Below, piece by piece: positions 6,123 through 59,256 of a DNA stretch of 64,000 nt. A program made the translations under genes and the position numbers. The stretch comes from Ginglymostoma cirratum (lineage: Eukaryota), in assembly GCA_024137785.1 (NCBI GenBank), contig JAHRHZ010000038.1, positions 12,700,050-12,764,049 of the forward strand, in the 5' to 3' direction. How positions within the stretch are numbered: position 1 is the stretch's first letter; the number at the start of each line of letters is the position of its first letter. The notes beneath the pieces were generated by a model. That model saw nothing but the letters and a program-made list of their open reading frames with translations, was not told the DNA's origin and searched no databases.

Positions 6123-6339
6123 TAAAAAAAAGCTGTGCATGTTGGAAATCAGAAACAAACAGAAATTGCTGGTAAAACTAAGCATGCATGGCAGCATTTG
6201 TGGAAAGGAAACAGAGTTAACGTTTCAGTTCTAGAACTACCAGTTCTGAAGAAGGGTCACTGGACCCAAAACGTTAACTCTGCTTTCTCTCCACACATGC
6301 TGCCAGACCTGCCGAGTTTTTCCAGCAATTTCTGTTTTT
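6123..6339. mobile_element. Palindromic PLE-derived element, family B, with hammerhead-like core
   Basis: Inverted arms aaacagaaattgctgg...cagagttaacgtttc / aaacgttaactctg...ccagcaatttctgttt. TSD gctcataaatgaat (6109-6122) vs gctcataaataaat (6340-6353). Core at 6246-6275. Confidence 0.85.
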
Positions 6340-7129
6340 GCTCATAAATAAATAGTTGTTATCCAAGCAAATGCCATTCATGGACATATAATTCAGCAAG
6401 GAGTTAACATTTTCAAGTAGGAGAAGATTGGTGATGGGAAATATGTCTTCTCTCATTCCTGCATATGCATCATTTAGTGTTCAATTACATATCTGAAAAT
6501 AACATAATTTCAGCCAACCTTAATTTTAGATTGAAGCAGATAACTTGAATCTATGGGTGCATGGTCAAGCCATTCTATTCTGCACACAGTTACATAATGT
6601 TGTGCCAAGTGCTTAATGTTTTGAATTAGATGAACTGTAAACTGTACTTTGACTACTGCAATAGGTCAATTAGTAAGATTCTGCTAGCAATGCCTACAAA
6701 GTGTACTACCTAATATCTGAAGATGAAGGGCACACAATTCTGTAAGAAACTCCCTCTAACATAGAACAGTGTCTATAGTATAACTATTACACCTGGGGAA
6801 CCAAACTCACCTCCATAATAAAGCTGAAATTTTGCCAACTATTTGTCAGCCAAGCTTTAACCTCAGGTCCTAGCCAAACAGCATTGCAATATATCAGCTG
6901 GAACCACATAACGTGGCTCCCACGGTGAGAATTATAAGATAATCAAGATAAAATCTAACAGAAAGTCTCACTTTGGCTCTCAAACACCTGAGTTGCGGGA
7001 GGAAGACTGCAAAGCCACTTCACTTAGATTGGAAGGGTCCATGTAAACAGTCACATATTCCAAACTTCTTTAGATTTTGGAAGGGTCTCAGAACTGGAAA
7101 ATAACAAATTAATACCTTATTCAAGAAGA

Positions 7130-9930
7130 TGCTTCAGACAAGATAGAGAGGGATATAAAGGGTGGGGAGGGGAGTTGCGTTACAAATAAGGAAGAATATG
7201 ACAGCTGTACTGAGCAAGAACACACTGGAGGGCTCATCCAATGAGACCATATGAGTATAGCTCAGGAAGGATGTAATCACTTTACTGGGATCGTACAACA
7301 GATGTCCCAACATTCAGCAGGTGAAAGAGGAACAGATATATAGACAGATGGTGGAAAAAATGTAAAAATAACAGGGTTTTGGGGTGGGTGATTTTAATTT
7401 CCCCTTTATTGACTGGGACACATTTAGTACAAGGGGTTTGGAGAGTGAGGGGCAGAATTTGTAGGTGTGTCCAGGATAGCTTTTTGAAACTATGTAAATA
7501 GTCCAACTAGGGAACAGGCCATACTAGACCTGATATTAAGGAAATGAATCCAGCCAGGGATCGAAGTTTCACTGGGGGAGCATTTTGGGAACACTCCCCA
7601 TAATTCTGTAAGTTTTAAGTTACTTATGGATAAGGATAACAGTAGTCCTCGGGTGAAAGTAATAAATTGGGGGAAGGCTAACAACCAACAAAATATTAGG
7701 CAGGAACTGGGAAATGTAAATTGGGGGCGGCTGTTAGGGTAAATCCACATCTTGCATGCTGGAATTTTTTTTAAAAAAAGGCTGATTGATTAGACTTCAG
7801 GACCAATATGTTCCTGTGAAAATGAAGGATGAGGATGGCAAGATTCGGGAACCTTTGATGACAAGAGAAATTGACAGCTTAGTCAAAAAGATTAAAAGGA
7901 GACATACATAAGGTTTAGGAAACTGAAGATAGACAGCAATCTCGAATAATACAAAGATAGCAGGAATGAATTCAAAAAAGGAATTAGGAGGAGTAAATGG
8001 AGCCATAAAATGTCTTTGGCGAGCAGGAATAAGCAAATTCCAAGGTGTTTTATACAAATATAAAGAGCAAAAGGGTGGTTAGGGGAAGGATAGGTCCACT
8101 CAAGGACAAAACAATGAACTTGTGTGTGTAACCAGAGGAAGTAGTTGAGGTCCTCAACAAATACTTTGCATCAGTATTGACAAAGGAGAAGGACACTATG
8201 AATGGTGAGTCTCAGGAAGAGTTAGTTGAAATTCTAGGGCATGTCAATACAAAAAAGGTGTTGAATGTTTTGAAAAGCATTAAGGTTGACAAGTACTCAG
8301 CAAGGGATAGAATCTCTCTCAGAATGCAGAGGGAGGGAGGTGAGGAAATTGCTGGGGCCTTGTTTGAAATCTTTGTATCCTCTTTAGTCACAGGACAGGT
8401 GCCTGAGGATGGGAGAACAGCCAACGTTATTCGAGATAACAAGCATGGGGCTGGATGAACACAGCAGGTCAAGCAGCATCATAGGAGCAGGAAAACTTGA
8501 CGTTTCGGGGCTAAACCCGAGATAATCTGGGAAATTACAGGCCAGTGAGCCTTACGTCACTGCTAGGCAAATCACTGCAGAAGATTAATAGGGATAGGAC
8601 TTACTCACAGTTGGAAAAATATGGGCTTATTAGCAACAGGCAGCATGGCTTTGCGTGGACAAGGTTATGTCTTTCAAATTTTATTGAGCTTTTTGAGAAA
8701 GTGACAAAGATGATTGATGAGGGCAGCGCAGTAAATATTATCTATAGAGACTTTAACAAGGCTTTTGACATGGTGCCTTATGGCAGGCTGAAGGTGAATT
8801 CACATGGGATCTGCAGTGAGCTGGGAAGATGCACACAGAATTGGCTTAGTCATAAAAGACAGTGAGTAGTGGTAATCTATGAATAGCATGTTCTGTAGGG
8901 AGCTGTGCTGGAACCCCTGTTGTTTGTAATATATATAATTGATTTGGAGGAGAATATAGCGGCCCCGATTAGTAAGCTTGCGGAAGCTGCAGATAGTGAG
9001 GACTGCCAGAGGATACAGCAGGATAAGGATAAGCTGGAGACTTGGGCAGAGAAATGGCAGACGGAATTTAACCCAGACAAATGTGAGGTGATGCGCTTTG
9101 GAAGATATAATGCAAGAGGGAAGTATACAGCAAATGGTAGAACTCTGGGTAGCATGAACATAGAGGGATCCAGGTGTACAGGTTGACAGTTCCCTGAAAG
9201 TGCAGCATAAGTGGATGAGGTAATCAAACAGACATGTCATGCTTGCCTTCATTGGTCAAGATATAGAGTATTAAAAAAAAACAAAATCGGCATGTAGCAG
9301 CTGTATACAACTTTAGTCAGGTAACAATTGTTGGATACAAGGAGATAGCAAGAACTACAGATGCTGGGAAAGGGTCCCAACTCGAAACCTTGATTCTCCT
9401 GCTCTATTGATGCTGCCTGACCTGCTGTGTTCCTCCAGCTCCACACTGTATTGACAATGCTGTAATAGTGTTCTGGTCACTGCACTACCAAAAGAACGTG
9501 GAGGCTTTGGAGGGGGTGGAGAAATGGTTTGTTTTCATTTGAATATCAAAGGATAAGGGGACAACCTGATGGAAGTTTACTAAATTATGACCGGCATCAA
9601 TAGAATAGATAATCAAAGGCTTTTCAGGTGAGAAATGTCAATTACTAGGGAACATAGGTTTAAGTTAAAAGGGGGTAAGTTTAAAGGAGGTGTGAGAGGC
9701 AAATTCTTTCACGCAGAGGGCGGTAAGTCCCTGGAACACATTGCCAGAGGAAGTGATGGAGGCAGATACAATAATAACGTTTACGAAGCATTTTGACAGA
9801 GAAAAGAATAGGCAGCTGGATACAGACCACATAAAAGCAAAAGGTTCTTAGTTTAGAAAGGCATCATGCAATGGTGCAGTTTTGATAGGCCAAAAGGGCC
9901 TGTTCCTGCGCTGTACTATTCTTTGCTTTT
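7130..9930 (+). mobile_element. Long CR1 LINE remnant (APE endonuclease, RT, 3' UTR), carrying two PLE-derived inserts
   Basis: ORF fragments VPEDGRTANV, QHGFAWTRLCLSNFIELFEKVT...IYRDFNKAFDMVP, WAEKWQTEFNPDKCEV; CR1 3' tail gggcctgttcctgcgctgtac at about 9900. Confidence 0.9.
8432..8518 (-). mobile_element. Half copy of the young PLE palindrome subfamily A'
   Basis: gagataacaagcatggggctggatgaacacagcaggtcaagcagcatcataggagcaggaaaacttgacgtttcggggctaaaccc is nearly identical to the arms at 14374-14459 and 40904-40988. Confidence 0.9.
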
Positions 9931-9934
9931 AAAG

Positions 9935-10620
9935 GTGGGAGACAAAAAAGCAGGAAATTTTAAGTGAGCGAGCACACCATCTCCCACAGCAAAATGCTAG
10001 AATCCATTATTAAAGAAGTTATAGCAAATTACCTAAGAAATCACAATGCAATCAGACAGAGTCAACATGGTTTTGTGAAAGGAACATAACTAATAGAGGC
10101 CTTTGAAGACAAAAGGCATTTAATAAGCTGTCACAAAGGTCACAATACAAAATAAGAGCTCATGTTGTAGGTGATAACCTATTGGCATGGATTAAAGATT
10201 GGGCAGCTAACAGGGTACAGAGGGTGAAGATAAATAGATCTTTATTAGGCTGACAAACCAAAAGTTGCGGACTACCACAGGGAGCACTGCTGGGCCTCAG
10301 CTATGTGGAATTTATATTAATGATTTGGATGAAGGAAAAAAACTAAATTTGCCAATAACACCATAATAGGTGGAATGTAAGTTAGCAAGAAGAGGTAAAA
10401 AGTTTACAAACAGGTTATAGACTAGTTAAGTAAGTGAGCAAACTTTGGGCAAATGAAATACATGGGAAAATGTGAACTGGTCCGTTTGGCTGGAAGAATA
10501 TAGAAGCAGTGTACCATTAAATGGAAGCAGATTGAAGAATCCAGTTATACACCGGGAACTTGACATCTGGGTGCATGAAGTACTAAAGATTGGTATACAG
10601 GTACAGCAGATATACAGGTA
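9935..10620 (+). mobile_element. Older CR1 RT fragment
   Basis: cagagtcaacatggttttgtgaaagg (QHGF), cagggagcactgctgggcctcag (PQGS-like), atttatattaatgatttgga (IYINDL). Confidence 0.75.
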
Positions 10621-10890
10621 CGGACCAGCGCCAGGGACCCGGGTTCGATTCCAGTCTCGGGCGACTGTCTGTGTGGAGTTTGCACATTCTCCCCGTGTCT
10701 GCTTGGGTTTCCTCTGGGTGCTCTGGTGTCCTCCCACAATCCAAAGACGTGCAGGGTAGGTGGACTGGCTATGCTAAATCACCCATAGTGCCCAGGGATA
10801 TTTAGGTTAGGTAGGTTAGACGTGGGAAGCCGGGGTGGGATGGACTTGTTGGGGCAAATGGCCTGTTTTCATATTGTAGGGATTCTATGA
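10621..10890 (+). mobile_element. HE1-type V-SINE, 5'-truncated
   Basis: gggttcgattcc B box, V domain and CR1-like tail. Confidence 0.9.
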
Positions 10891-11929: not shown

Positions 11930-13940
11930 AAACGAACCCATTAGAAACTGTTCTTAACCAAATTACCATCATTCCCGTGTACACGTAAATGTATTTTTTC
12001 ACATCTTTAACTGGTACCCTATGATTCAATTAATGAAGAAAAATAACGACAAATTCGGTTTAATTACTAATTATACAGCACGTTCGGATACATCGGGTAA
12101 GATACACTTCTCTAGCATGAATACACTATTCGTATAAAGTTAGTTTAGTGTGCTAGTCTCAAGCGGTTTGCACCTACGGAATTTAAATTCAGCGTTAATC
12201 ATGGGTCAGTGCTAAGCCTGATTCTGCAATGATGTGGCGTTATAGTTAGCAGTGTACAGCGTAAATTCGGTGTTGTCAAAAGCGCTCAATAAACACGCTG
12301 GACAAATTTTAAACCAGTTTGTTTAAGCATCTGAACAATAACTTTCAATTTCTCCCTCTCCCCTCAACCGCACAATTGTGTACCCGTGCAGACGCCGTGT
12401 TTTATTTATTAAATGGACAGCATGAAGAGTTGCAAGTAAAGCTTATATTTATTGCTCGGCCGAAACTAGAACTACACCTAACAATCGTGTTGCAGCATAA
12501 ACATATCTTGAACATCCCTGAATTTTGCACCCCGACTACATCACTTCGGAGATTGTTCAAGATATTTTATCGCCCTTGGAAATTGCCACTTTTTCATCTA
12601 CACTTACTTTACGCTAGGCTATACGTTGGTTGTGCCATAATAATCTATTTAATGTTCAGTAAATCCTATACAAAAGTGCCAGATCTTAAACCGTTTCTGT
12701 TTTGCAAACATGCCAATTAGCAGAGTTTATGTCCTCGAAACACTATTTACCAACAACTTTGACAATTTACCCAGCGGGTACGACAGTAAATTTCACACGC
12801 ATTGGAGTTCATCACCAGCAGATCCAGCAATGAGCTGAAATGGGTTTCATCTAAACCTAATTTAAACTACGACAATGCATACCTGGAAAATGAGATTACA
12901 GTCGCTTTGTTACAAAGAGCCCCGCAAATAAAATTAGAAAAGCTGCATTCAGAGTTTGTGTTGAGGTGACAACTTTGATAAGTAAATACCAGTCCCACCG
13001 TAATCACTGAACAGTGAAACTGTCCCGGTGAGTTGCATCATGCAAGATGAGTTACAACGAACTAAAATTCAATGACTTCCTCGCCCAGATCGATCCGAAA
13101 TTTTAACGGTTTCCTCTCCTGCAACGTTCCCTCCCGACAGTATCACTTTTTAAGGTCGGTGCATTTGTTTTTTTACAAATAAGAGCAGAACAACTGGGAG
13201 CAGTCATATAGCAGCTCAGCCCGTGGTGATAAGATGGGGCGTTATTTCCATTGTGATGGGGGGGGCGGATGTATTTGCAAATCAGAGGGGATCACGATGG
13301 TGGTAAATTCCCACCATTGATCTGGTCTATAGCGATCGGAACGTAAACTGTAGACTCCTCTCTCAGGGGAAACCTGGTCCCTTTGCTATTTTTAACTGGG
13401 CACAGTCATAAGTCTGAGTCTCTATAGTCACTGGCGGGGGGGGGGGTGAAGGAACAAAACTCAACTACAAATAAATCACACAGCTCAGCATAATTTAGGA
13501 GAGAAAGTATAAAAGCTTCTGACAATGTAATCCCAATCCGTGTCCATTCTGTGTCACTCAGAGACAAAGTTATCGAGCTGTGGCTGAGAAGCCGGCAGCT
13601 GGGGGCTGTCCCCGGTCTCCCCATCTCACTCACTCACACACACAATAAAAACCTACATCCTCCCATCTAACAGTAAGAGTCAATCTCCACTCAGTCTTTA
13701 CCTTCCAACTCCGGCCGTAAACACGGCACTGTCCTTCCGCCATTTTACTCCCTCCCGGCCACGATTGGCTTGTCGAAATTCCGGGAACAGAGGGTGTTGT
13801 CGAGGAGCCTCCCGGTCACCGTCCCGCCGCCCTCTTGGGAAGGGAATTGACTGCTCGTGGGCGCCATCTTGTTAAAGGTAAAGGATACCGCGCGTGGAAG
13901 TTGTCGCTGTTGAAGACGATCTTCCCTAGATCGACTTGTC
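11930..13940. promoter_or_regulatory. CpG-retaining (likely unmethylated) promoter domain
   Basis: CG dinucleotides are visibly frequent from about 11.9 to 13.9 kb compared with the CpG-depleted flanks, the region is almost repeat-free, and there is a GC-rich core at 13700-13900. Confidence 0.75.
13702..13870 (-). promoter_or_regulatory. Core promoter and first exon of a minus-strand gene extending left of the window (probably MKNK1 by synteny)
   Basis: Two YY1-type motifs on the minus strand (AAAATGGCGG at about 13737-13746, AAGATGGCGC at 13861-13870), CCAAT (gattggc, about 13762), GC box-like cccgccgccc, and a donor GAAG|GTAAAG at 13702/13701. The gene identity is inferred only from the MOB3C-MKNK1 tandem arrangement in tetrapods. 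Confidence 0.6.
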
Positions 13941-14339
13941 CGTTAGAGGTGATGTGGAGGTGTCGGTGTTGGACTGGGGGGAACAAAGTCAAAAATCACA
14001 CGACACCAGGTTAGAATCCAAAATAACAAGGTGTAGAGCTGAATGAACACAGCAGGCCAAGCAGCATCAGAGGAGCAGGAAGGCTGACGTTTCGGGACTA
14101 GACCCTTCATCAGAAATGGGGGAGGGGAAGAGGGTTCTGAAAGAAACAGGGAGAGAGGGGGAGGCGGATAGAGGATGGATAGAGGAGAGGAGGCAGACCG
14201 GTCAAAGAGGCGGGGTTGGAGCCAGTAAAAGGTGAGTTTAGGTGGGGAGTTAGGGAGGAGATAGGTCAGTCCAGGGAGGACGGACAGGTCAAGCGGGCGG
14301 AATGATGTTAGTAGGTAGGAGATGGGGGTGTGGCTTGAG

Positions 14340-14532
14340 AGAGATAAAAGGTACTGCAGATGCTGGAGAATCCGAGATAACAAGCATGGGGCTGGATGAA
14401 CACAGCAGGTCAAGCAGCATCATAGGAGCAGGAAAACTTGACGTTTCGGGCCTAAACCCTTTTCTGATGAAGGGTTTAGGCCCGAAACGTCAAGTTTTCC
14501 TGCTGTGTTCATCCAGCCCCATGCTTGTTATC
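14340..14532. mobile_element. Young 193-bp palindromic PLE-derived insertion (subfamily A')
   Basis: Perfect 16-bp TSD gggggtgtggcttgag (14324-14339 and 14533-14548), inverted arms, hammerhead core at 14464-14491. Confidence 0.92.
14464..14491 (+). ncRNA. Minimal type I hammerhead ribozyme motif
   Basis: CTGATGA-A-GGGT-TTAG-GCCC-GAAA-CGTC has all catalytic-core nucleotides, a 4-bp stem II, a palindromic ACGT in place of stem III, and a GUC cleavage triplet. Stem I is weak (UUU/AAG). Confidence 0.75.
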
Positions 14533-15889
14533 GGGGGTGTGGCTTGAGGTGGGAGGAAGGACAGGTTAGGGAGGCGGAGATGAGCTGGGCTGGTTTTGGG
14601 ATGCAGTTGGGGGAGGGGAGATTTTGAAGCTTGTGAAATCCACATTGATACCATTGGGCTGCAGGGTTCCCAGGCTGAATATGATTTGCTGTTCCTGCAG
14701 CCTTCAGGTGGCATCACTGTGGCACTGCAGGAGGCCCAGGATGGACATGTCGTCTGAGGAATGGGAGGGGGAGTTGAAATGGTTCGCGAATGGGAGGTGC
14801 AGTTGTTTGGTGCGAACCGAGTATAGGTGTTCTACAAAGCGGTCCCCAAGCCTCCGCTTGGTTTCCCCAATGTAGAGGAAGCCACAACGGGTACAGCGGA
14901 TGCAGTATACCACATTGGCAGATGTGCAGGTGAACATCAGCTTGATGTGGAAAGTCTTCTTGGGGCCTGGGATGGGAGTGAGGGGGGAGGTGTAGGACCA
15001 GGTGTAGCACTTCCTGCGGTTGCAGGGAAAAGTTCCGGGTGAGGTGGGGCTGGAGGGGACTGTGGAGCGGACAGTGGTCCCTCTGGAAAGCAGATAAGGG
15101 TGGGGAGGGAAAAATGTCTTTGGTGGTGGAGTCGGATTCCGCTTGGGAAGGTTGCAGGAACGGCAACTCATATTCCGCTTGGGAACCCTGCAGCCCAATG
15201 GTATCAATGTGGACTTCACAAGCTTCAAAATCTCCCCTCCCCCTACCGCATCCCAAAACCATCCCAGCTCATCCCCGCCTCCCTAACCTGTCCTTCCTCC
15301 CACCTATCCTATCCTCCCACCCCAAGCCCCACCCCAATCTCCTACCTACTAACCTCATCCCGCCCCCTTGACGTGTCCATCCTCCCTGGACTGACCTATC
15401 TCCTCCCCAACTACACTCACCTCTACTGGCTCCATCCCCGCTTCTTTGACCTGTGTCTCCTCTCCGCCCATCTTCTCCTCTACCCATCTTCTATCCGCCT
15501 CCCCCTCTCTCCCTATTTATTTCAGAACCCCCTTCCCCTCCCCCATTTCTGAAGAAGGGTCTAGGCCCAAAACGTCAGCCTTCCTGCTCCTCTGATGCTG
15601 CTTGGCCTGCTGTGTTCATCCAGCTCTACACCTTGTTATCTCAGATTCTCCAGCATCTGCAGTTCCTGCTATCTCTGAAACAAGGTTATAATCCAACATT
15701 ATTTTTATTTGAAATCACAAGGTTTCGAAGCGCTGCTCCTTCGTCAGGTGCACCTAAGAGGGATCGATAGGAGGCACCAGGTTCAAGTCCCATCTTCTTC
15801 AGAGAAATGTAATAATCTCCGACTGGGTTGATTTGGAAAATATTAGCTAATTTGATTATCTCTGTAATGAAAGAGTATAATCTCTCAAA

Positions 15890-16302
15890 AGTGTGGTTGG
15901 TTGGCTCACCGAGCTGGTTCGTTAGTTCACGGACATTTCATTACCCTGCTGGGTAACATCATCAACGCAGCCTCCGATGAAGCGCTGTTGTGTTTTCCCA
16001 CCTGGTATTTAAACTTTGGGGTCCGTTGGAATTGGTTACCTCATTTCAGGTTTTCCTTCGCAGTGGTATATATATAGGGTCTAATTCTACGTGTTTATTG
16101 ATGGCCTTCTTGGTGGAGAACGAAACCTCTAGAAATTCCCGTGCTTGTCTCTGTTTAGCCTGTCCTCGGATCCTGATGTTGTCCCAATCGAACTGGTGGT
16201 TCTCCCAATTCCAATGAAACGTCTGTGAACTAACGAACCAGCTCAGGGAGCGACCAACCACACCATCCACAACCCAAACTACAAATCTACTCAAAAACCT
16301 TA
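15890..16302 (-). mobile_element. Penelope/Poseidon-like fragment (GIY-YIG C-terminus plus terminal repeat with a short inverted arm), family D
   Basis: ORF 16046-16423 has HQFDWDNIRIRGQAKQRQAREFLEVSFSTKKAINKHVELDPIYIPLR. Inverted repeat gagctggttcgttagttcac (15911) / gtgaactaacgaaccagctc (16225). Degenerate hammerhead at 15932-15965. Confidence 0.8.
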
Positions 16303-16344
16303 AATCTCTTGTTGGTTTTGGGTTTATTATATTTTTCAAAAGGA

Positions 16345-16590
16345 ACAGACTATAATTGGAACTGTGGATGCTGAAGATCTGAAACAAAAACAGAAACAGA
16401 TCTTCTTCAAACAAAAGTGCCATTGATCACAGCAGGTCGGGCAACATCCATGGAGGGAGAGCAAGCTAATGTTTCGAGTCGAGATGATTCTTTGTCCGAG
16501 CTCTTCAAGGGTCACTGGATTCAAAACATTAGCTCTGTCATACCACAAAAGTTGCCAGACTTGCTGAGTTTCACCAGCAATTTCTGTTTC
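16345..16590. mobile_element. Palindromic PLE-derived element, family B-related, degenerate
   Basis: gaactgtggatgctgaagatctgaaacaaaaacagaaa...aagggtcactggattcaaaacattagctctg...cagcaatttctgtttc. Confidence 0.7.
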
Positions 16591-17339
16591 TGTAACAGAG
16601 CATCTGTAGTGACTGATTAAAGGATATGGACCTACTGCCCCATATACTCTGTTCAATGTGCTCATCACTCCTTTGCTACTCAACTGTGTCTTCACCTTCA
16701 TTATACATACTCAGGTTAGTTGATCTGATAATGTCTGAAAGCAGGAAATATTATTTCCCACACCTGATATGAAAATAAAGCATATGGAACTCCTAAGGAG
16801 CCATAACTGCCATTTAAGTAGTCAAAGGTTAAGACAGGAATTGGAGATCCAATACATCCATTTCCAAGTATTACTTTTTAAAACACTTTTTCATTTATGA
16901 TCATTAAAGATCATAATTTTTTCTCCAATATCGAATGTTCTCCATCACTTGACAGTGGCAAAACAAATCATGATCAAGGATTAGCAATATTTAATCTTGT
17001 CAGTATAAGAAATTATTTTCTGACATTCATTATGCATTTTACTGTTTTAAATGTTGAACAGTAAAACATCGGGTAGCTTACAAAATCTAGAACATTGTTT
17101 TCTCTATAATTAACACTTAAATTTCCTGAAAGCAATGTTTCACATTGTTTTTCTTCACAGATACAGCTAAGCCTGGTGTTTCCAGCATTTTCAGCTTTAA
17201 ATTGCTGAAATGTTAATGGGCGGAGCTGTTGGTTAATGAAAATTATTATTTATCTGCTTAGCTCACAGAGTATCATAAAGCACTGTTACAAACATCTCCT
17301 GTAAATGCATGATATAAATCTTATCCTCCTGCCAGCCTG

Positions 17340-18562: not shown

Positions 18563-20282
18563 GTGCTGAATCTTACATAACAAGGTGTAGAGCTGTATGA
18601 ACACAGCAGGCCAAGCAACATCAGAGGAGCAGGAAGCCTTCCTGCTCCTCTGAAGCTGCTTGGCCTGCTGTGTTTATCCAGCTCGACATCTTGTTATCTC
18701 AGATTCTCCAGCATCTGCAGTTCCTACTATCTCTGCTGAATCTTACAGTTTTTTTCACTAAGTGTGAGTTGTGTCGAAGTTTTTGGAGGGATTCTCGCTG
18801 GAGGCCTATGTATATTTCACAACTCACCTCATTAACTACTTAACAACTATTTCGCCCTACTGCATCCCTCTTGTCTAATTCTATCCACATTTTAACATAA
18901 CTCACCACTTAGTAGGTGCTCACTGATGAACTGGCAGCTTTGCACTCACACTATCATTTAAAAGCCTAATGTGCACTTTGGACAAGCACTGTCTGTCCTC
19001 AGCTGCAGTTCACATCCCTGACGTTTTCCCTGTACCTGCCAAACAAGGAAATTGGCACATAGGAACTGAAAGTGCGGCTGGATAGGGCAGTGCAATCAGG
19101 GAATGGCCTCTTGCCCAGGACCAGCCCTGGGAGCCACAACACCAGACTGCACTAGAATGGTCACCTGGGTTATTGGAGTTTCAATCATCTGAAGGAATGT
19201 CCAATAGTGCAGAAAGAAAGTTAGTGACCTTCTCCATTCCACCAGTGTTTGTGCCACCATCACTCTGATATCTCACACTAACTCTACTATTGTACACATG
19301 TCCCACAGAAGCCCACACACTACCACTCTCACTACTGCAACATCTTCCCCACTCACACTCACTCACCTCAACACCCCTAACCCTGCCTACTCACTCACCC
19401 AGGAAACTTCCATCTGCATCAATTATGCCACCCACTTTTCTCTCCTGTAAAACGTGCCTCTTTCTCATTCCAGGAGGAAAACGGTGCACAGTAGGACGGA
19501 AATGCAAGTTGGGTGGTCATTTGCCCATATGTGAAGAGGATCCTTACTCTGATCACCCTGAGCATCTGATTTACTGTGCAGGGCCTCTCTGACTGCAGTC
19601 TACCTACCTCAGCTTCAGTGAGGACTGCTGACAACCATGACAAACTTCCTGGCTTTGTGTCTGCACTAAACAGCAAGGCCCCAAGACAGAAGTAATATGA
19701 GCCTGGTAGGTCTGGCTGGGGGAAAAGTTCAAAAAAGGCAAAGCATTGCAAGGCAGGGATATTGTGTGCATTCAGGTAGGCTCAGAGTGCGTAAGCACTT
19801 AACAGCAAACAAAGAACCTGGAGATGCAGCCAGATCTGGTCCATGAGGTTGATGTGTATTCCTGAGCACAAAGTGTCATCACTGCAGCTTTCCAATAATA
19901 GTTGTCACTGCAGCCCAAAGTGCACTATTGAATTGAACAAGCATACTGTATTGTGGGGTGCAGATACACCATTAGTATTCTTAGGAGCTGGTACATATTT
20001 GATGCCCGTGTGCGTGGATGCGCATAGCCGGTGTGCCGTAGCCACCAGCAGCAAGAACACTGCAAAGTCCCTGCATTAGCAAGCACTTGCCTTCACCACC
20101 ACCGCCCCCCACCCCCGCCACATGATTTCATAAGACAAGTGCCAAAGAATCCAGTTGCATGATTAATGAAGATCAGAAGATTGCATGAGGAAAAAAAAAA
20201 ATCGCCATGCTTCACGGTGCACTTGGCGCCATGAATCTTGCTCGAGAAAGCACTGTCCAAAAAAAAATTGAAAATTCAGTCC
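18563..20282 (+). mobile_element. Probable PIF/Harbinger-type DNA transposon derivative with Myb/SANT-like relic
   Basis: Imperfect terminal inverted repeats gtgctgaatctt / aaaattcagtcc. From about 19202 the plus strand translates Q*CRKKVSDLLHS, resembling the QCRKKxNDL helix of Harbinger Myb/SANT-like proteins. Confidence 0.55.
18578..18733. mobile_element. Palindromic PLE-derived insertion, family A, hammerhead core absent
   Basis: Perfect 14-bp TSD tgctgaatcttaca (18564-18577 and 18734-18747). The arms meet at gcaggaag|ccttcctgc. Confidence 0.9.
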
Positions 20283-20973: not shown

Positions 20974-21200
20974 TAAAACAGAAATTTTTGGAGAAACTTA
21001 GCATGTCTGGCAATGTCTGTGTAGGCAGAAACAGCGTAAATGTTTTGAGTGTAATATGATTCTTAATACCTTGTTCTGAATAAGTCATATTAGACTTGAA
21101 ATATTAATACAATTTCTCTCCATAAATGCTGCAGTCCTGCTGAGTTTCTCCAGCATTTTAGTTGTATTTTAGCTTTCCAGCATCTGCACTATTTTGCTTT
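20974..21200. mobile_element. Old palindromic PLE-derived element, family B
   Basis: aaaacagaaatttttggagaaacttagcatgtctggca ... ctgaataagtcatattagacttgaaatattaa ... cctgctgagtttctccagcatttt ... ccagcatctgcactattttgctttt. Confidence 0.7.
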
Positions 21201-21309
21201 TACGAAGTTAACAGGATGACCATAATGCCTCAGCAATTTCATATAGCAAATATCAGCACCTTAATCACTATGACTTTTCTAATCTAAGATGAGTTAGTTT
21301 GTTTTAGTC

Positions 21310-29480: not shown

Positions 29481-29901
29481 GGATGTTTCACTCACCAAGT
29501 TAAAGAAAGGAAGGGATGTGATACATGTGTTAAGTTTCTCAGTACGTCACACATTTCAGAGACATACTCATGATATCATCACTGTTTTATAGTATGACCT
29601 GAGGGTATAAAGTTTTCAGACTTCATCTTACCATGGATCACGTGAAGCACACACATGAATAGAAGAATGCTACTCTTTGTAACTGAATAGCCTGTGAGGC
29701 ACTATTTGTATATTTTAATAAGCTGACATAAGTGTCAGTTGGATTTTCCAATGTCACATTACCCACATTTAGATTATGTTTCAGGAGGTAATGTAAGCAT
29801 TGCTGCACCAGATAGAGATGCCCTGAAGGAGGCAAAACATTTAGCAAATCCACAAAATGGGTAATTTCAATCTCAGTTAAACAGCAGTCCATTAACTCCC
29901 T

Positions 29902-33965: not shown

Positions 33966-34190
33966 CCCATAAATGGAAAGGCAATAGCATAGTGGTATTA
34001 TTGCTGGACTATTAATCCAGATAATGTTCTGGGCATCTGGGTTTGAATCCCATCACAGCAGATTTCTACACCATTCCTGATGCACAAGTGGCAAAATGCA
34101 AGATTATTTCTTCAAAATAAAGCCAACAGAAATATGACTTCACAGGTAAGACTCAGAAATACATACAACCATACATGTAAACATACATAC

Positions 34191-36860: not shown

Positions 36861-37178
36861 GGCACGGTGGCTCAGTGGGTAGCACTGCAGCCTCACAGCG
36901 CCAGGGACCCAGGTTTGATTCCAGCCTCAGGTGACTGTCTGTGTGGAGTTTGCACATTCTCCCCGTGTCTGCGTGGGTTTCCTCCGGGTGCTCCGGTTTC
37001 CTCCCACAGTCCAAAGATGTGCAGGCTAGGTGGATTGGCCATGCTAAATTGCCCATAGTGTTCAGGGGTGTGTGGGTTATAGGGGGATGGGTCTGGGTGG
37101 GATGCTCCAAGGGTCGGTGTGGACTTGTTGGGCCGAAGGGCCTGTTTCCACACTGTAGGGACTCTAATGATTCTAATG
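36861..37178 (+). mobile_element. HE1-type V-SINE, near full-length, young
   Basis: ggcacggtggctcagtgg...V domain with retained CpGs...gggccgaagggcctgtttccacactgtaggg. Confidence 0.93.
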
Positions 37179-37270
37179 AACTACCTCATTAAGTCTATAC
37201 TGCCTCTCCCTACACCTTCTGTCAAAATATATCACCTCAAATTTCCTTGTGATAAATTTCATTTGCCACT

Positions 37271-37556
37271 TAGAATCGTAGAATCCACACAGTGCGGAAG
37301 CAGACCACACGGCCCATCAAGTTTGCAGTAACCTTCCGTAGAGCATCCCACCCAAACCAATCCCAGTACCATCTCCCTGAAACCCTGCATTTACCAGTTA
37401 ACCTACCAACTCGGCACATCCCTGAACACTATGGGCCAAAACAGATATTGGGAGAACATGCAAACTCCACACAGACAGTTGCCCAAGGCTGGAATTGAAC
37501 CTGGGTCCCTGATGCTGTGAGGCAGCAGTACTAACCACTGAGCCACCGTGCCACCC
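37271..37556 (-). mobile_element. HE1-type V-SINE with internal deletion
   Basis: Reverse head ctaaccactgagccaccgtgccaccc and V-domain part gcaaactccacacagacag. Confidence 0.88.
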
Positions 37557-39495: not shown

Positions 39496-40098
39496 AGTTC
39501 GCAACAAACAACTGCACCTCCCAGTTGCGAACCATTTCAACTCCCCCTCCCATTCCTCAGACGACATGTCCATCCTGGGCCTCCTGCAATGCCACAGTGA
39601 TGCCACCCGAAGGCTGCAGGAACAGCAAATCATATTCAGCCTGGGAACCCTGCAGCCTAATGGTATCAATGTGGATTTCACAAGCTTCGAAATCTCCCCT
39701 CCCCCAACCGCATCCCAAAACCAGCCCAGCTCATCTCCGCCTCCCTAACCTGTCCTTCCTCTCACCTACCCCCTCCTCCCACCTCAAGCTCCACCCCCAT
39801 CTCCTATCTACTAACCTCATCCTGCCCCCTTAACCTGTCCATCCTCCCTGGACTGACCTATCTCCTCCCTACCCCCCACCTACACTCACCTTTACTGGCT
39901 CCATCCCCGCCTCTTCGACTTGTCTGCCTCCTCTCCACCTATCCTCTCCTCTATCCATCTTCTATCCGCCTCCCCCTCTCTCCCTATTTATTTCAGAACT
40001 CCCTTCCCCTCCCCCATTTCTGATGAAGGCTCTAGGCCCGAAACGTCAAGCTTTCCTGCTCGGCCTGCTGTGTTCATCCAGCCCCACACCTTGTTATC
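39496..40098 (+). mobile_element. 5'-truncated Penelope-like element, family A (GIY-YIG C-terminus, pyrimidine-rich spacer, hammerhead)
   Basis: ORF HSVRNKQLHLPVANHFNSPSHSSDDMSILGLLQCHSDATRRLQEQQIIFSLGTLQPNGINVDF. 17-bp TSD tccaattaattgcactc (39479-39495 and 40099-40115). Hammerhead core at 40020-40047. Confidence 0.92.
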
Positions 40099-40903
40099 TC
40101 CAATTAATTGCACTCCCCTTGTGTGCTTTCCCCTTGGTCTGATAATTTTTTATGGTACATTGGAGGAGAAGTCCTGAGCACCACACCTTAAAGAAGACTG
40201 TCAAAGCTTTGGTGAGGCTACAGAGAAGGTTTGCCAGGCTATTATCAAATTTTCTGATGTGGAGAGATTGGAAACACTGGAAGTGTTGTCACAGCAAAAC
40301 TGAAGGACAGGTGGAAACCAGATAGTAATATTCAGAATAATGATGGGTTTTGATAGAGTAATTAGGGAGAAAATGTTTTATCAGATAAGTAAGCCGATAT
40401 CTAGAGTTCAAAGCTAAAATAATTTGGCAACAGAATTAGAAGGGAAATCGGAAGAATTTTTGTCAGGGTAGTTGTGATCTGGAATGCGGTACCTCAAAAC
40501 AGTTGGTGAAATCAGACATAGCCACCCAGATCCCAAAACAAAGCTGCTGGAAAAGCTCAGCAGGTCTGGCAGCAAAACAGAGTTAATGTTTTGGGTCCAG
40601 TGACCCTTCCTCGGAACCTCTCTGGTTTTATAAGGTCACCCCTGAGTCTAAGGCACTGCGGGGGAAAAAAGCCTCAGCCTATTCAACCTCTCCCTACAAC
40701 TGAAACCCTCCAGTCCTGGCAACATCCTTGTAATATAGTCTGCACCCTCTCAGGTTTAACACCATCTTTTCTATAGAAGGGTAACCAGAAATGAACGCAG
40801 TGTTCTAAAAGTGGCTTCACCAATGTCCTGTACAGTGGCAAAATGAGGTCCCAAATCCTATACTCAATGTTTTAATGTATGGAGGCAAGTGGCCAAAAAC
40901 CTT

Positions 40904-41562
40904 AGATAACAAGCATGGGGCTGGATGAACACAGCAGGTCAAGCAGCATCATAGGAGCAGGAAAACTTGACGTTTCGGGCCTAAACCCTTCATCAGAAAT
41001 GATTTCTGATGAAGGNNNNNNNNNNNNNNNNNNNNNNNNNNNNNNNNNNNNNNNNNNNNNNNNNNNNNNNNNNNNNNNNNNNNNNNNNNNNNNNNNNNNN
41101 NNNNNNNNNNNNNNNNNNNNNNNNNNNNNNNNNNNNNNNNNNNNNNNNNNNNNNNNNNNNNNNNNNNNNNNNNNNNNNNNNNNNNNNNNNNNNNNNNNNN
41201 NNNNNNNNNNNNNNNNNNNNNNNNNNNNNNNNNNNNNNNNNNNNNNNNNNNNNNNNNNNNNNNNNNNNNNNNNNNNNNNNNNNNNNNNNNNNNNNNNNNN
41301 NNNNNNNNNNNNNNNNNNNNNNNNNNNNNNNNNNNNNNNNNNNNNNNNNNNNNNNNNNNNNNNNNNNNNNNNNNNNNNNNNNNNNNNNNNNNNNNNNNNN
41401 NNNNNNNNNNNNNNNCCCTTCATCAGAAATGATTTCTGATGAAGGGTTTAGGCCCGAAACGTCAAGTTTTCCTGCTCCTATGATGCTGCTTGACCTGCTG
41501 TGTTCATCCAGCCCCATGCTTGTTATCTCGGATTCTCCAGCATCTGCAGTACCTTTTATCTC
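40904..41562. mobile_element. Young palindromic PLE-derived insertion (subfamily A') spanning the assembly gap
   Basis: Perfect 14-bp TSD tggccaaaaacctt (40890-40903 and 41563-41576), perfectly complementary arms, and intact hammerhead cores on both strands (40969-40996 minus, 41436-41463 plus). Confidence 0.92.
41016..41415. other. Assembly gap (400 N)
   Basis: Run of n. Confidence 1.
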
Positions 41563-41583: not shown

Positions 41584-41669
41584 GAGATAACAAGGTGAAG
41601 AGCTGGATGGACACAGCAGGCCAAGCAGCATCAGAGGAGCAGGAAGGCTGACGTTTCGGGCCTAGACTC
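41584..41669 (-). mobile_element. Single-arm PLE-derived insertion, family A
   Basis: gagataacaaggtgaagagctgg...ggctgacgtttcgggcctagactc; 7-bp direct repeat cttcact (41577-41583 and 41670-41676). Confidence 0.8.
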
Positions 41670-41848
41670 CTTCACTACTCTGTATATCTGTGACTCAACT
41701 TTCAAGGAACTGCGCACCTGCACCCGCAGTTCTTGTTGGTTGTTTGAACAGATGGCTGATTAATGTGAAATTGTGAACATTAGAGGAAGGGGAACATGTG
41801 TGCCAATGTTATTATAATGGTAAAAATGGACTGTCAATATTCAATTTC

Positions 41849-46382: not shown

Positions 46383-46527
46383 GGCGTAGTAGGAACTGCA
46401 GATGCTGGAGAATCTGAGATAACAATTGCATTTCTGAAGAAGGGTCTAGGCCCAAAATGTCAGCCTTCCTGCTCCTCTGATGCTGCTTGGCCTACTGTGT
46501 TCATCCAGCTCTACACTTTGTTATCTC
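46383..46527. mobile_element. PLE-derived insertion, family A (inverted tail plus hammerhead arm)
   Basis: 15-bp TSD taaa(t/a)aaatgggtaa (46368-46382 and 46528-46542); decayed core at 46434-46461. Confidence 0.85.
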
Positions 46528-47484: not shown

Positions 47485-48155
47485 CTAACATATGAACAAG
47501 AAACAAGAGTAGGCACTGGACCTACACAGTCAATAAGATTATGGCTCATCTGATTTTAATCATAACTTAATATTCCTGCACATTCCCAATAATCTTTCAT
47601 CAAAAGTCTACCTACCTCAGCCTTAAAAATATTTGAAGTTTCTGCATCCCTACCTTCTAAAACCAATATTTTTAAACTATGACCCCAGTTCTCAATTCAC
47701 CCACGAAAGGAAACATCCTTTCAACATCCACCCAAGTCAAGTCCCCTCAGGATCTGAGATAACTCCAGCATCGACAGTTCCTACTATCTCCCCCAGGGAT
47801 CTTACATGTTTCAATTAAGTCAGTTCTGACTCTGCTAATCTCTAGAGGATACTGGCCTGGCCTGTCTAGCCTTTTCTCATAAAACAATCTGTCCATTCCA
47901 GGTATTAATCTAGTAAACCTTTTTTGAACTGCTTCCAACTCGTTAATGTCCTTCAGTAAATACACTGACCAGTACGTATAAAGTCCTCTAGAAAGGATCT
48001 CACAACACCTATACAACTGAAACATAACTTCCCTTATCTTGCATTCAATTTCCCCCACAACAAAACGTAACATTTATCCGCTTTCCAATTACTTGCTGTA
48101 CCAGCATACTAAACTTCTGTAATTCATGCACTAGAACATCTAGATCTCCCTGCAT
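47485..48155 (-). mobile_element. CR1 3' fragment
   Basis: ORF YWSVYLLKDINELEAVQKRFTRLIPGM...DLIETCKI. Confidence 0.85.
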
Positions 48156-51317: not shown

Positions 51318-52255
51318 GGGGCAGGATGCCAGCCCATTTGCTAAACCAGAAGATGCAGTGTCAACCCAGGAAAAATGTATTACAAAGGGCACACCGAGCA
51401 AACAGAATACCATTTAGAATGTTATACACAATACCTTTGAGACCTATTTGGCAGTCTATTTGTTAATAGAAATTCTCACTAACTCTATTTAAACAATGCA
51501 GATTATTTTAAATTTCTCAATTGACTATTGAATTCATCAACAACTGGTGTAAAGTTTTAATAGAAATTGTATTTTGGCCATTTAATTTTTTTTTGAACAG
51601 AAACTTTAGAAGTCTTATGATTCTGGAATTCACATTGCCAAAAGAAATTAGTAACATCTGGTCTAACCCGATTTTCTTAATCTCTCAATACTATGAACAA
51701 AATAAGAATTTTCCCGTTAACCATTTCTAAAACAGTACCTTTTCAGTTTGTTGATAAATATCAGCTTAGACTGCACAACAAATACAGCATTTTGTTCATA
51801 TTACAGCTTATTTTTAAAAAATACTCAACCTATTTACCAAATGTCAGTGTTTTATATTCTCTTAGTCAACTCAAATCAAGGGCTCTGGAAATAGTTATTC
51901 ATACAGAAAATGCCTTTTCATTTTGTTGTATTGCCATGTCTATATTTGTCTTCCCAGCGATGGCTGTTATTCAATTCAGGCAGTGTACTTTATAATTAAA
52001 GCTTGCCGAGTAACACTGGTTCATCAAATATTAATAGTGAGGGAGTTGATGACATTAAGGCAACAAATTAGATCACCGACTTATTGTTAGAACCCTGTCC
52101 GAAAGTGGTTTGTAACCAGCAGTTCTATTTCAATGGTTTTAAAACAATACATATTATACCTTTTAGTATTTAGCTTAATCTTCCAAGACAAATGTAGAGC
52201 TCATCATTTAAACTCTTCTATCAAAAATTCTTAATCTTTATCTCAAAAATCTTAC

Positions 52256-52673
52256 CAACACGAGTGGGGAAATTTTCCTCATTATTGATCAAGGCCTCAA
52301 TCCAGTCCATGAGCAAATTCATATATTTTGGAGCAGTCACTTTGGTTGGTTTCTTATACTTGTGTTCATCCTGCCACCTGTACTCATACTTCAGCCCGCC
52401 AGACATGACAGGACAGCTCCTTTCGGTGCAATACTCACAAATGGTACCATAGATGAGGTTGATACGATTGAAGAAATCTACAGTGTTGACTGCAATCCAG
52501 TCATTGAGGTTTTCCCCTGCAGGAAGCTGAACTACTGTCTTGAGATCGACACCAGATTTAAGTGAGGCCTGCGCCTTCTTAAAGAGCTCGAAGCGTTGGG
52601 TTCCAGGCTCAAACTTCTTTCGGGGTCGAAAAGTCCTGTCCTTATTAAAGACTTGCTTCAGGCAAAGGGCCAT
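52256..52673 (-). CDS. MOB3C: MOB kinase activator 3C, first coding exon (418 nt coding)
   Basis: [30 protein letters not shown]...NFPTRV(G). The [10 protein letters not shown]-terminus is characteristic of MOB3C. Donor GTT G|gtaag at 52256/52255, phase 1, matching the next exon. Likely acceptor tactgtcttacag| at 52832/52831. Confidence 0.96.
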
Positions 52674-53075
52674 CTTTCAGAAAGTACAGCGAGGTACCAA
52701 TCTCTTCCTTTAAAAAGGGATTCAGTATAAAAAGGGTTTGTTTCTTTCTTGGCTTAAGCTGATTGTATTTAAGAGCTTCAGATATTTTAATTAGTTTGCT
52801 CTCCACAAGTTGCTGCAGCCATCTGTGTATTCTGTAAGACAGTAGAAACATTTTGCATTCAATTGAACAGAGTCCAGTGATATTTTTTCAAGGTATCCAA
52901 TTGATTGGCATATCAACTCCTGGTAAAGCTACCACTTTGTCAGAACTTAAATACACCAATATGCAATTTTAAGGTACAAGTTAAAATGTTAACAGAGAAC
53001 ATTCATGTCTCATTGTCTGTCAGAACATAAAATAGACATGCAACCTGGTATTTCGACATTATAGACTAGACAATT

Positions 53076-53303
53076 AAAGTTTTTGAGGAGACTTGTAGCT
53101 TGGGTTGTGGATGGGATTGTTGATTTGTTCACCGAGCTGGTAGGTTGATTTGCAGATGTTTTGTCACCATAGTAGGTAACAAATAACAAACAGGAAAGAC
53201 CAACAATGGTTCATCGGAGGCGCAGTGATGATGTTACCTAGTATGGCGATGAAACATCCCCAACCAACCTACCAACTCGCAAAAAAAAAAAATCAACAAA
53301 CCC
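53076..53303. mobile_element. Palindromic PLE-derived element, family D (Poseidon-like terminus)
   Basis: Perfect 13-bp TSD agactagacaatt (53063-53075 and 53304-53316). Arms gagctggtaggttg / caacctaccaactc. Decayed hammerhead gtgatga-t-gttacc-tagtat-ggcgat-gaaa-catc (53225-53258). Confidence 0.82.
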
Positions 53304-56643: not shown

Positions 56644-56965
56644 GAGCAGCACGGTGGCTCAGTGGCGAGCGCTGCTACTTCATTGTATCAGGGTTCAATT
56701 CCACCAGCAGACAACTGTCTGTGTGGTGTTTGCACATTCTCCCTGTGTCTGCGTTGGTTTCCTCCCACAATCCAAAGATGCGCAGCTTAGGTGGATTGGC
56801 CATGCTAAATTGGCTGTAGTGTCCAGGGATGTGCAGGCTAGGTGAGTTAGCCATGGGAAATGCAGGCTGATAGGGTGTGGGGCTGGGTCTGGCTGGAATG
56901 ATTTTGGAGGGTTGGTGTGGACTTGATGGGCCGAACAGCCTGCTTTCACACTGTAGGGATTCTAT
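56644..56965 (+). mobile_element. HE1-type V-SINE
   Basis: gcagcacggtggctcagtgg, V domain, tail gggccgaacagcctgctttcacactgtagggattcta. Confidence 0.9.
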
Positions 56966-58322: not shown

Positions 58323-58511
58323 TGTGATGTGGAAGTCCCAGTGTTGGACTGGGGTGGACAAGTTCAGAGTCACCAGGTTATAGACCAACAAGTTTATTTG
58401 AAAACATAAGCTTTCAAAGCGCTGCCCCTTCATCAGGTGCAGTCAAGCTCCAAAAGCTTTTGATTTCAAATAAACCTGTTAGGCTGTAACCTGGTATTGT
58501 GTGACTTTTGA
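58323..58511. mobile_element. Palindromic PLE-derived element, family C
   Basis: 11-bp TSD cta(c/t)tgtcata (58312-58322 and 58512-58522). Arms ccaggttatagaccaacaagtttatttgaaa / tttcaaataaacctgttaggctgtaacctgg. Minus-strand core CTGATGA-A-GGGGC-AGC-GCTTT-GAAA-GCTT (58408-58436). Confidence 0.85.
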
Positions 58512-59029
58512 CTATTGTCATACAGTTTAACTTCCTAAGCTACTTTACCCTACTGTCCAAATTTCTCTGTCTTTGACTTGACTTTAAGTTCTAATTATGA
58601 AAGTGAATTTATTTATAAAACTCCCAAGCTCAGCGTGAAATTCCTTAATTTTGTGACCACTCTTTCCCAGCGAATGCCTTAGTTTGAGATTATCCTGTCT
58701 CATAACACAAGACAAGATCTAAAATAAATGCTTCACTTGTTGGTTCCAAAATATTTTCCTTGAACTTTAATTCGAAATTAGTTTTGCTAATTTTATTTAT
58801 TAAATTTGTATGAAAATTCAGGTTTTCAATTATTATTGCATTGTCTTTGACACAAGCTGCTCTTAATTTGATTAGTATACTGTCAATCAAGATAGCTATT
58901 GTTGAGGAGCCAATAATTTACTTTTCTGACACGTTACTTCTTAACTTGACCATACTGATTACACTTCCTGTTCTGCTGAGCCAAGATTTTTCCACATTAC
59001 TGTCTTTAAGTCATCCTTAAGTTAACGCT

Positions 59030-59256
59030 AAATAAAAACCAAAAGAACTGCGGATGCTGTAAATCAGGAACAAAAACAAGGTTGCTGGAAAAGCTCAGCA
59101 GGTCTGGCAGCATCTGTGGAGGAGAAAACAGAGTTAATGTTTCGGGTCCGGTGATCCGTTCTGAGGAAGGGTCACAGGACTCGAAATGTTAACTCTGTTT
59201 TCTCCTCCACAGATGCTGCCAGACCTGCTGAGCTTTTCCAGCAACCTTGTTTTTGT
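59030..59256. mobile_element. Young palindromic PLE-derived element, family B
   Basis: TSD tccttaagttaac (59014-59026 and 59257-59269), about 75-bp near-perfect arms, core CTGAGGA-A-GGGTC-ACAG-GACTC-GAAA-TGTT at 59161-59190. Confidence 0.92.

Follow-up and report, generated by a model that had tools for sequence, protein, structure and literature searches.

Does a DNA palindrome that is found many times over at one locus move as a palindrome, or is it made anew at each site? The question is raised by a 64-kb stretch of the genome of the shark Ginglymostoma cirratum (assembly GCA_024137785.1, contig JAHRHZ010000038.1, positions 12,700,050 to 12,764,049; hereafter the window), which holds many short inserts, here called minis, built from hammerhead-bearing termini of Penelope-like elements (PLEs). 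An original prediction, made from the sequence alone, had interpreted them as a mobile system in its own right, whose unit is the palindrome. The analysis described here indicates that the feature is real and of known parentage and that the claim of a new mobile system does not stand: at least in this window, the palindrome is a product and not a unit.

The catalogue of inserts was built from a self-comparison of the window combined with hand reading, and contains 23 inserts, namely 20 minis (36-244 bp) and three longer PLE fragments (14020-15676, 15887-16301 and 39496-40099). They belong to four terminus families: A (comprising A1, A2 and one old copy), B (including B2), C and D. Thirteen of the minis have two arms and seven a single arm; the sizes count the mini at 40904 as gap-closed and the family C copy without its nested content, and their sum, gap and nested parts excluded, is about 3.1 kb (∼5% of the window). 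Positions within an arm are numbered from C3 of the hammerhead core as +1, with -4 the first base of stem I. All 11 coordinates named in the original prediction hold a short insert of PLE-terminus arms. Its description of most inserts as two-armed was borne out for 13 of the 20 minis, but in four of these 13 (9343, 16350, 46383 and 47756) the tailed arm scarcely exceeds the tail, and two of the inserts it named (32995 and 41584) are single arms.

Recurrent identical central junctions had been proposed as the mark of a mobile palindrome, and unique ones as the observation that would count against it. The centres differ in 15/15 two-armed inserts, with none shared. Across families this is trivial, but distinct centres are also the rule within family A (six minis) and family B (five minis). 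The A2 arms of the minis at 14340 and 40904 are identical at 84/84 positions and that of 8433 matches at 83/84, and yet the three inserts are built differently. The mini at 14340-14532, nested in the long A1 copy, has a perfect 16-bp target-site duplication (TSD), arms that end at +7 and -3 and an intact core at 14464; that at 40904-41562 has a perfect 14-bp TSD, arms ending at -5 and -4 and both cores intact; and that at 8433-8518 (minus strand) is a single tail-less arm starting at +9 within a fragment of a long interspersed nuclear element (LINE) reverse transcriptase (RT). One young A2 template yielded three different inserts. The repeat at 8433, 8 bp long and overlapping the arm end, is microhomology rather than a clean TSD, and when a target deletion was looked for there, the left flank proved to have no second copy that could be used. 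The mini at 40904, a near-perfect palindrome, is interrupted at its centre by 400 Ns (41016-41415), and the two edges of this gap share an exact 30-nt overlap; from this overlap we infer a single palindrome of ∼230 bp, and the gap is probably a false one caused by the hairpin. No tandem array of arms was found in the window: the 12 tandem-repeat rows all have periods of ≤ 22, and the self-comparison gave no direct arm tandem. The retrozyme-like behaviour that had been suggested, which implies head-to-tail units each with a hammerhead, was thus not borne out. With 15 cases in hand, some palindromes may nevertheless have been copied secondarily elsewhere in the genome.

The flanks and tails of the inserts point to target-primed insertion. 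When flanking direct repeats were scored against 3000 random flank pairs, 11/23 inserts had one at p ≤ 0.0013 and 13/23 at p ≤ 0.01; these values are somewhat generous because the insert boundaries were set by hand. The ten inserts without a TSD at p ≤ 0.01 are mostly old or very short. For the 11 inserts originally reported as flanked mostly by TSDs of 7-17 bp, nine reached p ≤ 0.0013 and 58323 reached p = 0.01, whereas 41584 gave p = 0.03; TSDs of 7 bp are weakly supported, and the 12 best-supported ones span 10-17 bp with a median of 14. The long fragments have TSDs of 14 and 16-17 bp, in the same range as the 10-16 bp of the minis. The AT content of the TSDs is 0.645 against 0.598 for the window, a small difference. 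The tail, predicted to be roughly 35 nt, measured 28-40 nt in 12/12 inserts. It is present in 15/15 two-armed but only 1/8 one-armed inserts (Fisher p = 3e-5), and the coupling persists (14/14 against 2/9) when the doubtful two-armed insert at 47756 is moved to the one-armed class. No insert of the 23 has two tails, whereas a tail-less arm is found in 22/23. The tail-less arm is the longer in 11 of the 15 two-armed inserts and the tailed arm in three, with one tie (sign test p = 0.057). The inserts in which the tailed arm is little more than tail are an old family A mini (9343-9455; left side just a tail, tail-less arm beginning near +7, TSD not found), an A1 mini with a tail plus 10 nt on the left and a full tail-less arm from -5 (46383-46527; 15-bp TSD, 14/15), an A1 remnant of 36 bp consisting of an 8-nt inverted arm end and a tail (47756-47791; degenerate TSD, p 0.09), and a compound insert, nested or chimeric (16350-16593), which combines a B tail stub, a B2 arm (16409-16503, minus strand, ending at -4) and a tail-less B arm. 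An inverted truncated copy with a one-sided tail of 30-40 bp is described as the standard anatomy of PLE insertions (PMC8557442, PMC3846280, PMC8969392), and it is found here in the 15/23 inserts that are two-armed, each with one inverted, 5′-truncated copy and one tail at one end.

The arms do not stop at random. Unique centres had been equated with independent truncations, and the prediction had not foreseen that the truncations would cluster at the 5′ edge of the hammerhead. Of 39 arm 5′ ends, 14 lie at -5 to -3, 10 at +3 to +12, two at +29, five at +85 or beyond, five upstream of -30 and three elsewhere. This table was curated by hand; the aligner concurs for the young arms, although it gave -7 for the arm at 14464 through a chance match into the opposite arm. 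The template of family A is known to continue upstream, and still four of the seven arms reaching C3 stop at -5 to -3 (p 7e-6 per arm and 7e-4 per insertion, or 3e-4 and 0.03 after correction for 45 windows). The four single B arms (1620-1719, 32995-33095, 40531-40617 and 61048-61152, all tail-less and on the minus strand) end at -4, -4, -3 and -4, respectively, and upstream of -4 they have only 3-7/20 nt in common; the perfect 15-bp TSD of 32995 directly abuts -4, whereas the TSD of 61048 is doubtful and none was found for 40531 or for the old arm at 1620. A similar edge may be visible in proteins: in 5/17 gene models the arm peptide is entered from unrelated sequence at the codon for -3 to -1, and in one more a codon earlier. 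These entry points fit the presence of the edge in other copies as well, but splicing is also possible. A splice acceptor behind the 5′ stop was considered and rejected, as the nearest AG after the pyrimidine tract of family A lies near -27 and not -5; because the bases at -5 are mixed, -4/-5 is not claimed as an initiator-like site or as the place of a cap-templated G.

The source of families A and D is, on the evidence of their coding sequence, an endonuclease-positive (EN+) PLE. The arms of family A are preceded by GIY-YIG coding sequence and a pyrimidine tract, and terminate the fragments at 14.0-15.7 and 39.5-40.1 kb. The first (14020-15676) is a head-to-head A1 fragment with a 14-bp TSD (one mismatch), made of an inverted tail-less copy (14020-15146) and a tailed copy (15147-15676); the second (39496-40099, plus strand) is a single tail-less copy carrying the endonuclease C-terminus, pyrimidine tract, hammerhead and arm between perfect TSDs of 16-17 bp. 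Within the first, a coding fragment (14590-15142, minus strand) comprises a PLE linker with a Cys motif and a GIY-YIG endonuclease; the GIY-YIG part (14.7-15.1 kb) shares 87% identity with P0001, a whale shark (Rhincodon typus) protein with RT and GIY-YIG domains, and 71% with a zebra shark protein, and its own Pfam GIY-YIG match (E 0.0012) is below the gathering score. These identities by themselves point to a carpet shark as the most likely source of the DNA. The Cys linker motif is common to P0001 and the frame 14707-15282 of the window. A zinc-finger-like Cys motif between RT and endonuclease is given as a mark of Neptune, common to Nematis (PMC8557442), and by this motif, rather than by a tree, family A is placed with Neptune. 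The zebra shark model P0002 continues from the endonuclease into a family A arm. PLE RT sequence is absent from the window but present in the close relative P0001.

The original prediction had also tied family D directly to GIY-YIG coding sequence, and here the link proved indirect. In the head-to-head fragment at 15887-16301 (tailed arm from +24; weak 7-bp TSD), the inverted tail-less copy carries a putative endonuclease C-terminus (16049-16219, minus strand). This peptide has no Pfam match of its own, but it is 72% identical to P0031, which has a GIY-YIG match (E 1.9e-4), and P0029 continues from the endonuclease into the family D terminus. In the ESM Atlas the D peptide falls with unnamed eukaryotic clusters (0.93), the nearest named one being GIY-YIG (0.84, with 17% of members), which we take as a lead only. 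The other D insert is a two-armed mini (53076-53303) with a perfect 13-bp TSD, a tail-less arm reaching about -33, a tailed arm from +8 and a decayed core. Family B is similar to A over a stretch of 107 nt (70%, E 3e-7), and family C is tied to the others by architecture alone. No full-length copy with direct pseudo-long terminal repeats (pLTRs) around a full open reading frame (ORF), or partial tandem, was seen in the window, although these are expected of full-length copies only. The coding link and the variable TSDs of 10-17 bp agree with the proposed PLE origin and with target-primed retrotransposition rather than cut-and-paste movement.

All four families have the minimal type I hammerhead layout, that is a 4-bp stem I, the core, one bulged base, stem II, GAAA, the palindromic 15.2-16.2 pair and an NUH site, while the stem sequences differ among the families. 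Watson-Crick pairs average 2.57/4 in stem I within families against 1.51 across them, and 3.31/5 against 2.48 in stem II; this comparison is descriptive only, as related copies are counted many times. An Rfam scan of the window gave 16 matches, none of them a hammerhead. Although the description of the inserts as hammerhead-bearing holds at the level of families, the core is intact in only 9/19 arms spanning it, two of them in long fragments, and in 6/20 minis. Losses are frequently at CpG sites, as neutral decay would give. The two-armed minis are predicted to fold as one long hairpin (4/4 folded), which would bury the core, so that in such a fold the ribozyme could not form. We propose that the hammerhead is a passenger of the terminus and not a replication module of the mini. 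In the A1 mini at 18578-18733 (perfect 14-bp TSD) the centre lies at the predicted cleavage site (+29): the first base 3′ of this site opens the tailed arm, and the alignment of the other arm, which contains one mismatch, extends to that base too. This centre (18630-18645) is suggestive, as a single insert, of hammerhead cleavage in vivo.

The best Rfam matches were to microRNA (miRNA) hairpin models under gathering score and were dismissed as generic hairpins. In particular, the minis match miRNA precursor models at 59110-59216 and 18598-18675, with E down to 7e-10. The palindromes can thus be miscalled as miRNAs, and they may also give rise to hairpin small interfering RNAs. Translated arms are also held by many of the gene models P0011-P0028, two of which (P0019 and P0023) read across a palindrome centre. 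Because minis mimic miniature inverted-repeat transposable elements (MITEs) and miRNA hairpins and leak into gene models, they matter for the annotation of repeats and genes in sharks.

On balance we favour the interpretation that the minis are dead-end insertion products of EN+ PLEs, each built afresh at its site. This is close to the second option of the original prediction, stereotyped abortive PLE insertions, which is supported by centres that are unique and ends that are clustered. In the proposed sequence of events, the GIY-YIG endonuclease would nick both strands ∼10-17 bp apart, creating two 3′-OH primers and the TSD; the TSDs are observed, and the enzyme is suggested by the equal TSD range on the coding fragments. 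RT would then start internally on the RNA, at an inner site ∼95 nt downstream of C3, to give the tail-less arm seen in 22/23 inserts. The end positions are plain from the inserts, and an internal start is suggested by the PLE protein of the anole (PMC11167929). In about two thirds of events, the second nick would prime at an outer site 28-40 nt further 3′ and give the tailed arm in opposite orientation; here the coupling of tail and inversion is the observation, and twin priming its proposed cause. The outer cDNA may stop on meeting the inner site, as in the 4/13 two-armed minis with little beyond the tail, or proceed by displacing the first cDNA. Both cDNAs would end early, mostly at the 5′ edge of the hammerhead (-5 to -3), which we read as the RNA 5′ end, or at the base of stem II (+3 to +12); the clusters are observed and their cause is conjectural. 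Where the two cDNA ends meet, the inserts themselves show either a blunt junction, a short filler or microhomology, so that every centre differs; the inserted copies would then decay neutrally.

Priming at both 3′-OH ends would be expected to leave arms placed head-to-head between TSDs, their RNA 3′ ends pointing outward, which is the arrangement seen. As the PLE transcript would have start sites in its 5′ pLTR too, starting there would give a run-off of 100-130 nt to the transcript start. Same-sense cDNAs would anneal only via self-complementary bits, which fits the centres of 18578 and of the B2 mini at 29137-29333 (10-bp TSD), where a 5-nt microhomology involves core and stem II. Minis do not contain the RNA that lies 3′ of the start site and, by analogy with the anole element, should be inactive from the moment of insertion. 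Fold-back on one cDNA was rejected as the sole mechanism because neither arm is consistently the longer: the tail-less arm extends further in the 5′ direction in many inserts, but the tailed arm does so in a few others.

Several points weigh against this interpretation. Everything comes from one 64-kb window of one species (20 minis over 63.6 kb), and the clustering test was devised post hoc, after the data had been seen. About seven of the old-arm 5′ ends were read by hand where the aligner had stopped short, and 47756 was classed as two-armed on just an 8-nt arm. A structural stop of RT at stem I would look the same as an RNA 5′ end at -4/-5, and the anole support, used here by analogy, comes from a Poseidon element in vitro. 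A search for a PLE ORF starting with the A1 arm peptide gave 18 matches, of which 17 were read, and none had RT after the arm; these 17 are all short gene models that had taken in the arm by splicing or read-through. We thus found no protein that supports use of the A1 arm and tail as the start of the ORF in shark elements. As an observation on that stretch, the A1 arm and tail at 15546-15674 (plus strand) form 43 stop-free codons, and in some copies the hammerhead core contains an ATG, as it does in the anole element. Finally, the arms of B, A2 and C that reach C3 (8, 3 and 2, respectively) stop at -5 to -3 in 13/13 cases and never beyond -5, whereas three of four A1-type arms pass -5 and one stops at -5 to -3.

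This last contrast favours an alternative that we rate as possible but doubtful, in which B, A2 and C are templated by a short SINE-like (short interspersed nuclear element) non-autonomous PLE RNA, consisting of the hammerhead, arm, tail and an unseen 3′ part, which borrows PLE enzymes; the unit would be the single arm, and the palindromes would again be made afresh. In its favour, an indel in A2 closes the reading frame that is open in A1, no coding partner of B or C was found in the window, and a protein search with the B arm gave, among seven candidates, one match of 80 aa with no domain, although a search in one frame is weak evidence of absence. Non-autonomous elements derived from pLTRs have also been published (PMC8557442; bioRxiv 10.64898/2026.07.22.740005). 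Against it, the numbers are small, there is no tandem master in the window, and by the anole analogy a mini would lack the RNA 3′ of the start site that activity needs. Combining this with insertion by twin priming gives a broader reading that we put forward with no more than tentative conviction: shark genomes would hold a very abundant fossil record of PLE-specific twin priming, in which the two nicks use two fixed internal starts on an RNA beginning at the first stem of the hammerhead, with B, A2 and C derived from short non-coding SINE-like masters distinct from tandem retrozymes, and with 18578 a trace of cleavage in vivo. If true, the two fixed starts would explain the inverted pLTR and one-sided tail of all PLEs without antisense templates.

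It is improbable that the minis are solo pLTRs, left when full-length PLEs (inverted pLTR, pLTR, ORF, pLTR and tail) lost their body by recombination between the direct pLTRs. Such loss would yield an inverted arm, an arm and a tail within one TSD as well as a fixed 5′ edge, and solo pLTRs are described in Adineta vaga (PMC3846280); but among the 23 inserts there is no full-length or two-pLTR copy, the three long fragments have no 5′ pLTR, frequent recombination over ∼100 bp would be required, and the tail-only arms and the ends at +3 to +29 are left unexplained. Replication of the palindrome itself, as a retrozyme-like circular or hairpin RNA, is less probable still. The density of the minis, their stereotyped size near 190-230 bp and the hammerhead architecture of all four families would suit it, whereas the differing centres, which extend to the A2 pair with identical arms, the lack of head-to-tail arrays, and a single hammerhead per strand that is buried in the hairpin and intact in so few minis speak against it. 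That the minis are MITEs of a DNA transposon family deserves almost no credence: as had been noted, they mimic MITEs superficially, with long inverted repeats, small size and no coding capacity shown, but this reading is refuted by the long and variable TSDs and the GIY-YIG link, the ends are asymmetric with a one-sided tail, the arms are retroelement termini, single arms have inserted with perfect TSDs (32995, 39496), neither a constant short TSD nor a matching transposase, named beforehand as signs of such an origin, was seen, and the 150 longest of the 174 frames scanned had no transposase domain (a weak point).

The remaining inserts are as follows. Family B includes three further two-armed minis, at 6123-6339 (tail on the left; TSD 6109-6122/6340-6353, 13/14), at 20975-21203 (old, tail on the right, no TSD found) and at 59030-59256 (13-bp TSD, ends at +9 and -3, intact core in the tail-less arm). 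A single tail-less A1 arm at 41584-41673 (minus strand) has its 5′ end at about +6 and a weak 7-bp TSD overlapping the arm. Family C is represented by a two-armed mini at 58323-58511 (11-bp TSD, 10/11; tailed arm ending at -5; intact core) and by a single tailed arm on the minus strand that is split by the long A1 insertion into a 3′ half (13949-14019) and a 5′ half (15677-15752; intact core, 5′ end -5). The latter is part of an insertion hotspot (13949-16593) in which an A2 mini lies in an A1 fragment in a C arm, followed by the D and B/B2 inserts within 0.9 kb, an arrangement that fits PLE insertion into PLE sequence. A CpG-rich, promoter-like stretch (13600-13930) immediately adjoins this nested cluster and contains two ATGGCG motifs on the minus strand, which we take to be YY1-like.

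The window is vertebrate DNA of 40% GC. A gene for a MOB-family kinase activator is represented in it by two minus-strand coding exons, at 52224-52676 and 34143-34448 (Pfam Mob1_phocein E 2e-42 and 2e-28), and as they flank 34.4-52.2 kb the inserts located there are intronic. LINE RT and endonuclease fragments lie at 8075-8862, 29896-30453 and 32281-32571, with the inserts at 8433 and 32995 within or beside them. A dispersed repeat family of ∼350 bp, presumably a V-SINE, is present at 2080-2430, 10592-10890, 36862-37170 and 56690-56965, with an inverted partial copy at 37270-37556 close to one of them.

How do these inserts compare with known systems? In LINE-1 twin priming, the second nick primes internally on the RNA and an inverted segment results; the L1 segments are adjacent and non-overlapping, whereas the two shark arms copy the same stretch from two fixed starts. 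A link to the human Eulor hairpin-and-tail repeats was sought and none was found. The shark families A-D may well be catalogued already in Dfam or Repbase. Our literature search, in which older Penelope work was thinly covered, found nothing on shark PLE mini-palindromes, 5′ stops at the hammerhead edge or PLE twin priming, and the portions available of PMC6155905, PMC5753468, PMC12910113, PMC6515669 and PMC3653858 contain nothing on mini-palindromes. Two features were not found in print, namely the stopping of 14/39 arms within 3 nt at the hammerhead 5′ edge and the tie between tail and two-armed inserts. The origin of the inverted ends and tail of PLEs is presented as unsettled in PMC8557442, and self-priming on antisense RNA was proposed in PMC3846280. 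Should the tail coupling and the fixed 5′ stop prove true across the genome, two-nick priming could be tested by counting alone on the very many natural replicates in a shark assembly.

Retrozymes are described as tandem arrays of head-to-tail units, each carrying its own hammerhead, that give circular RNA (PMC7229834), and have been argued to stem from pLTRs (Li, Clavereau and Pollet 2026, bioRxiv 10.64898/2026.07.22.740005). The metazoan non-LTR retrozymes resemble the minis in being non-coding and pLTR-related, with a type I hammerhead and many dispersed monomers, and in their occurrence in the one cartilaginous fish sampled, but they are tandem and head-to-tail (PMC7229834), whereas the shark minis are head-to-head or single. 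The hammerheads themselves match the minimal ones of metazoan PLEs (Cervera and de la Peña 2014, PMC4209133) in the type I core, the bulged base before stem II and the palindromic 15.2-16.2 pair. That report attributes opposite-strand pairs of hammerheads ∼100-700 bp apart, and single motifs, to truncated PLEs; in the parts of it available, the ends, tails and TSDs of such copies are not mapped and no shark is named.

The PLE protein of Anolis carolinensis, from the Poseidon element PAc (Frangieh et al. 2024, PMC11167929), is reported to nick and extend both strands and to begin reverse transcription internally at two sites bounding the tail, which lie within an ORF starting at stem II, ∼111-118 nt from its beginning, with product length fixed by the RNA 5′ end; no RNA ends were found at the hammerhead cleavage site. 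The likeness to the shark inserts lies in two start sites that delimit the tail and are about as far from the hammerhead, in the use of both strands and in AT-leaning targets. The differences are that the anole work concerns one element in vitro, that inversions and mini copies are not addressed in the sections available, and that PAc needs ∼172 nt of ORF, that is RNA beyond the start site, which is absent from a shark mini. The closest match is to the truncated and inverted insertions of EN+ PLEs of the Neptune and Penelope/Poseidon clades (PMC8557442, PMC3846280), with which the shark inserts share head-to-head 5′-truncated copies, a tail at one end, TSDs, a terminal hammerhead and an upstream GIY-YIG domain. 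They differ in that the shark copies are mostly cut to the terminus alone, that their TSDs are longer than in the 8-10 bp cases of A. vaga (PMC3846280), that their 5′ ends cluster at the hammerhead edge, and that the tail is nearly limited to two-armed inserts.

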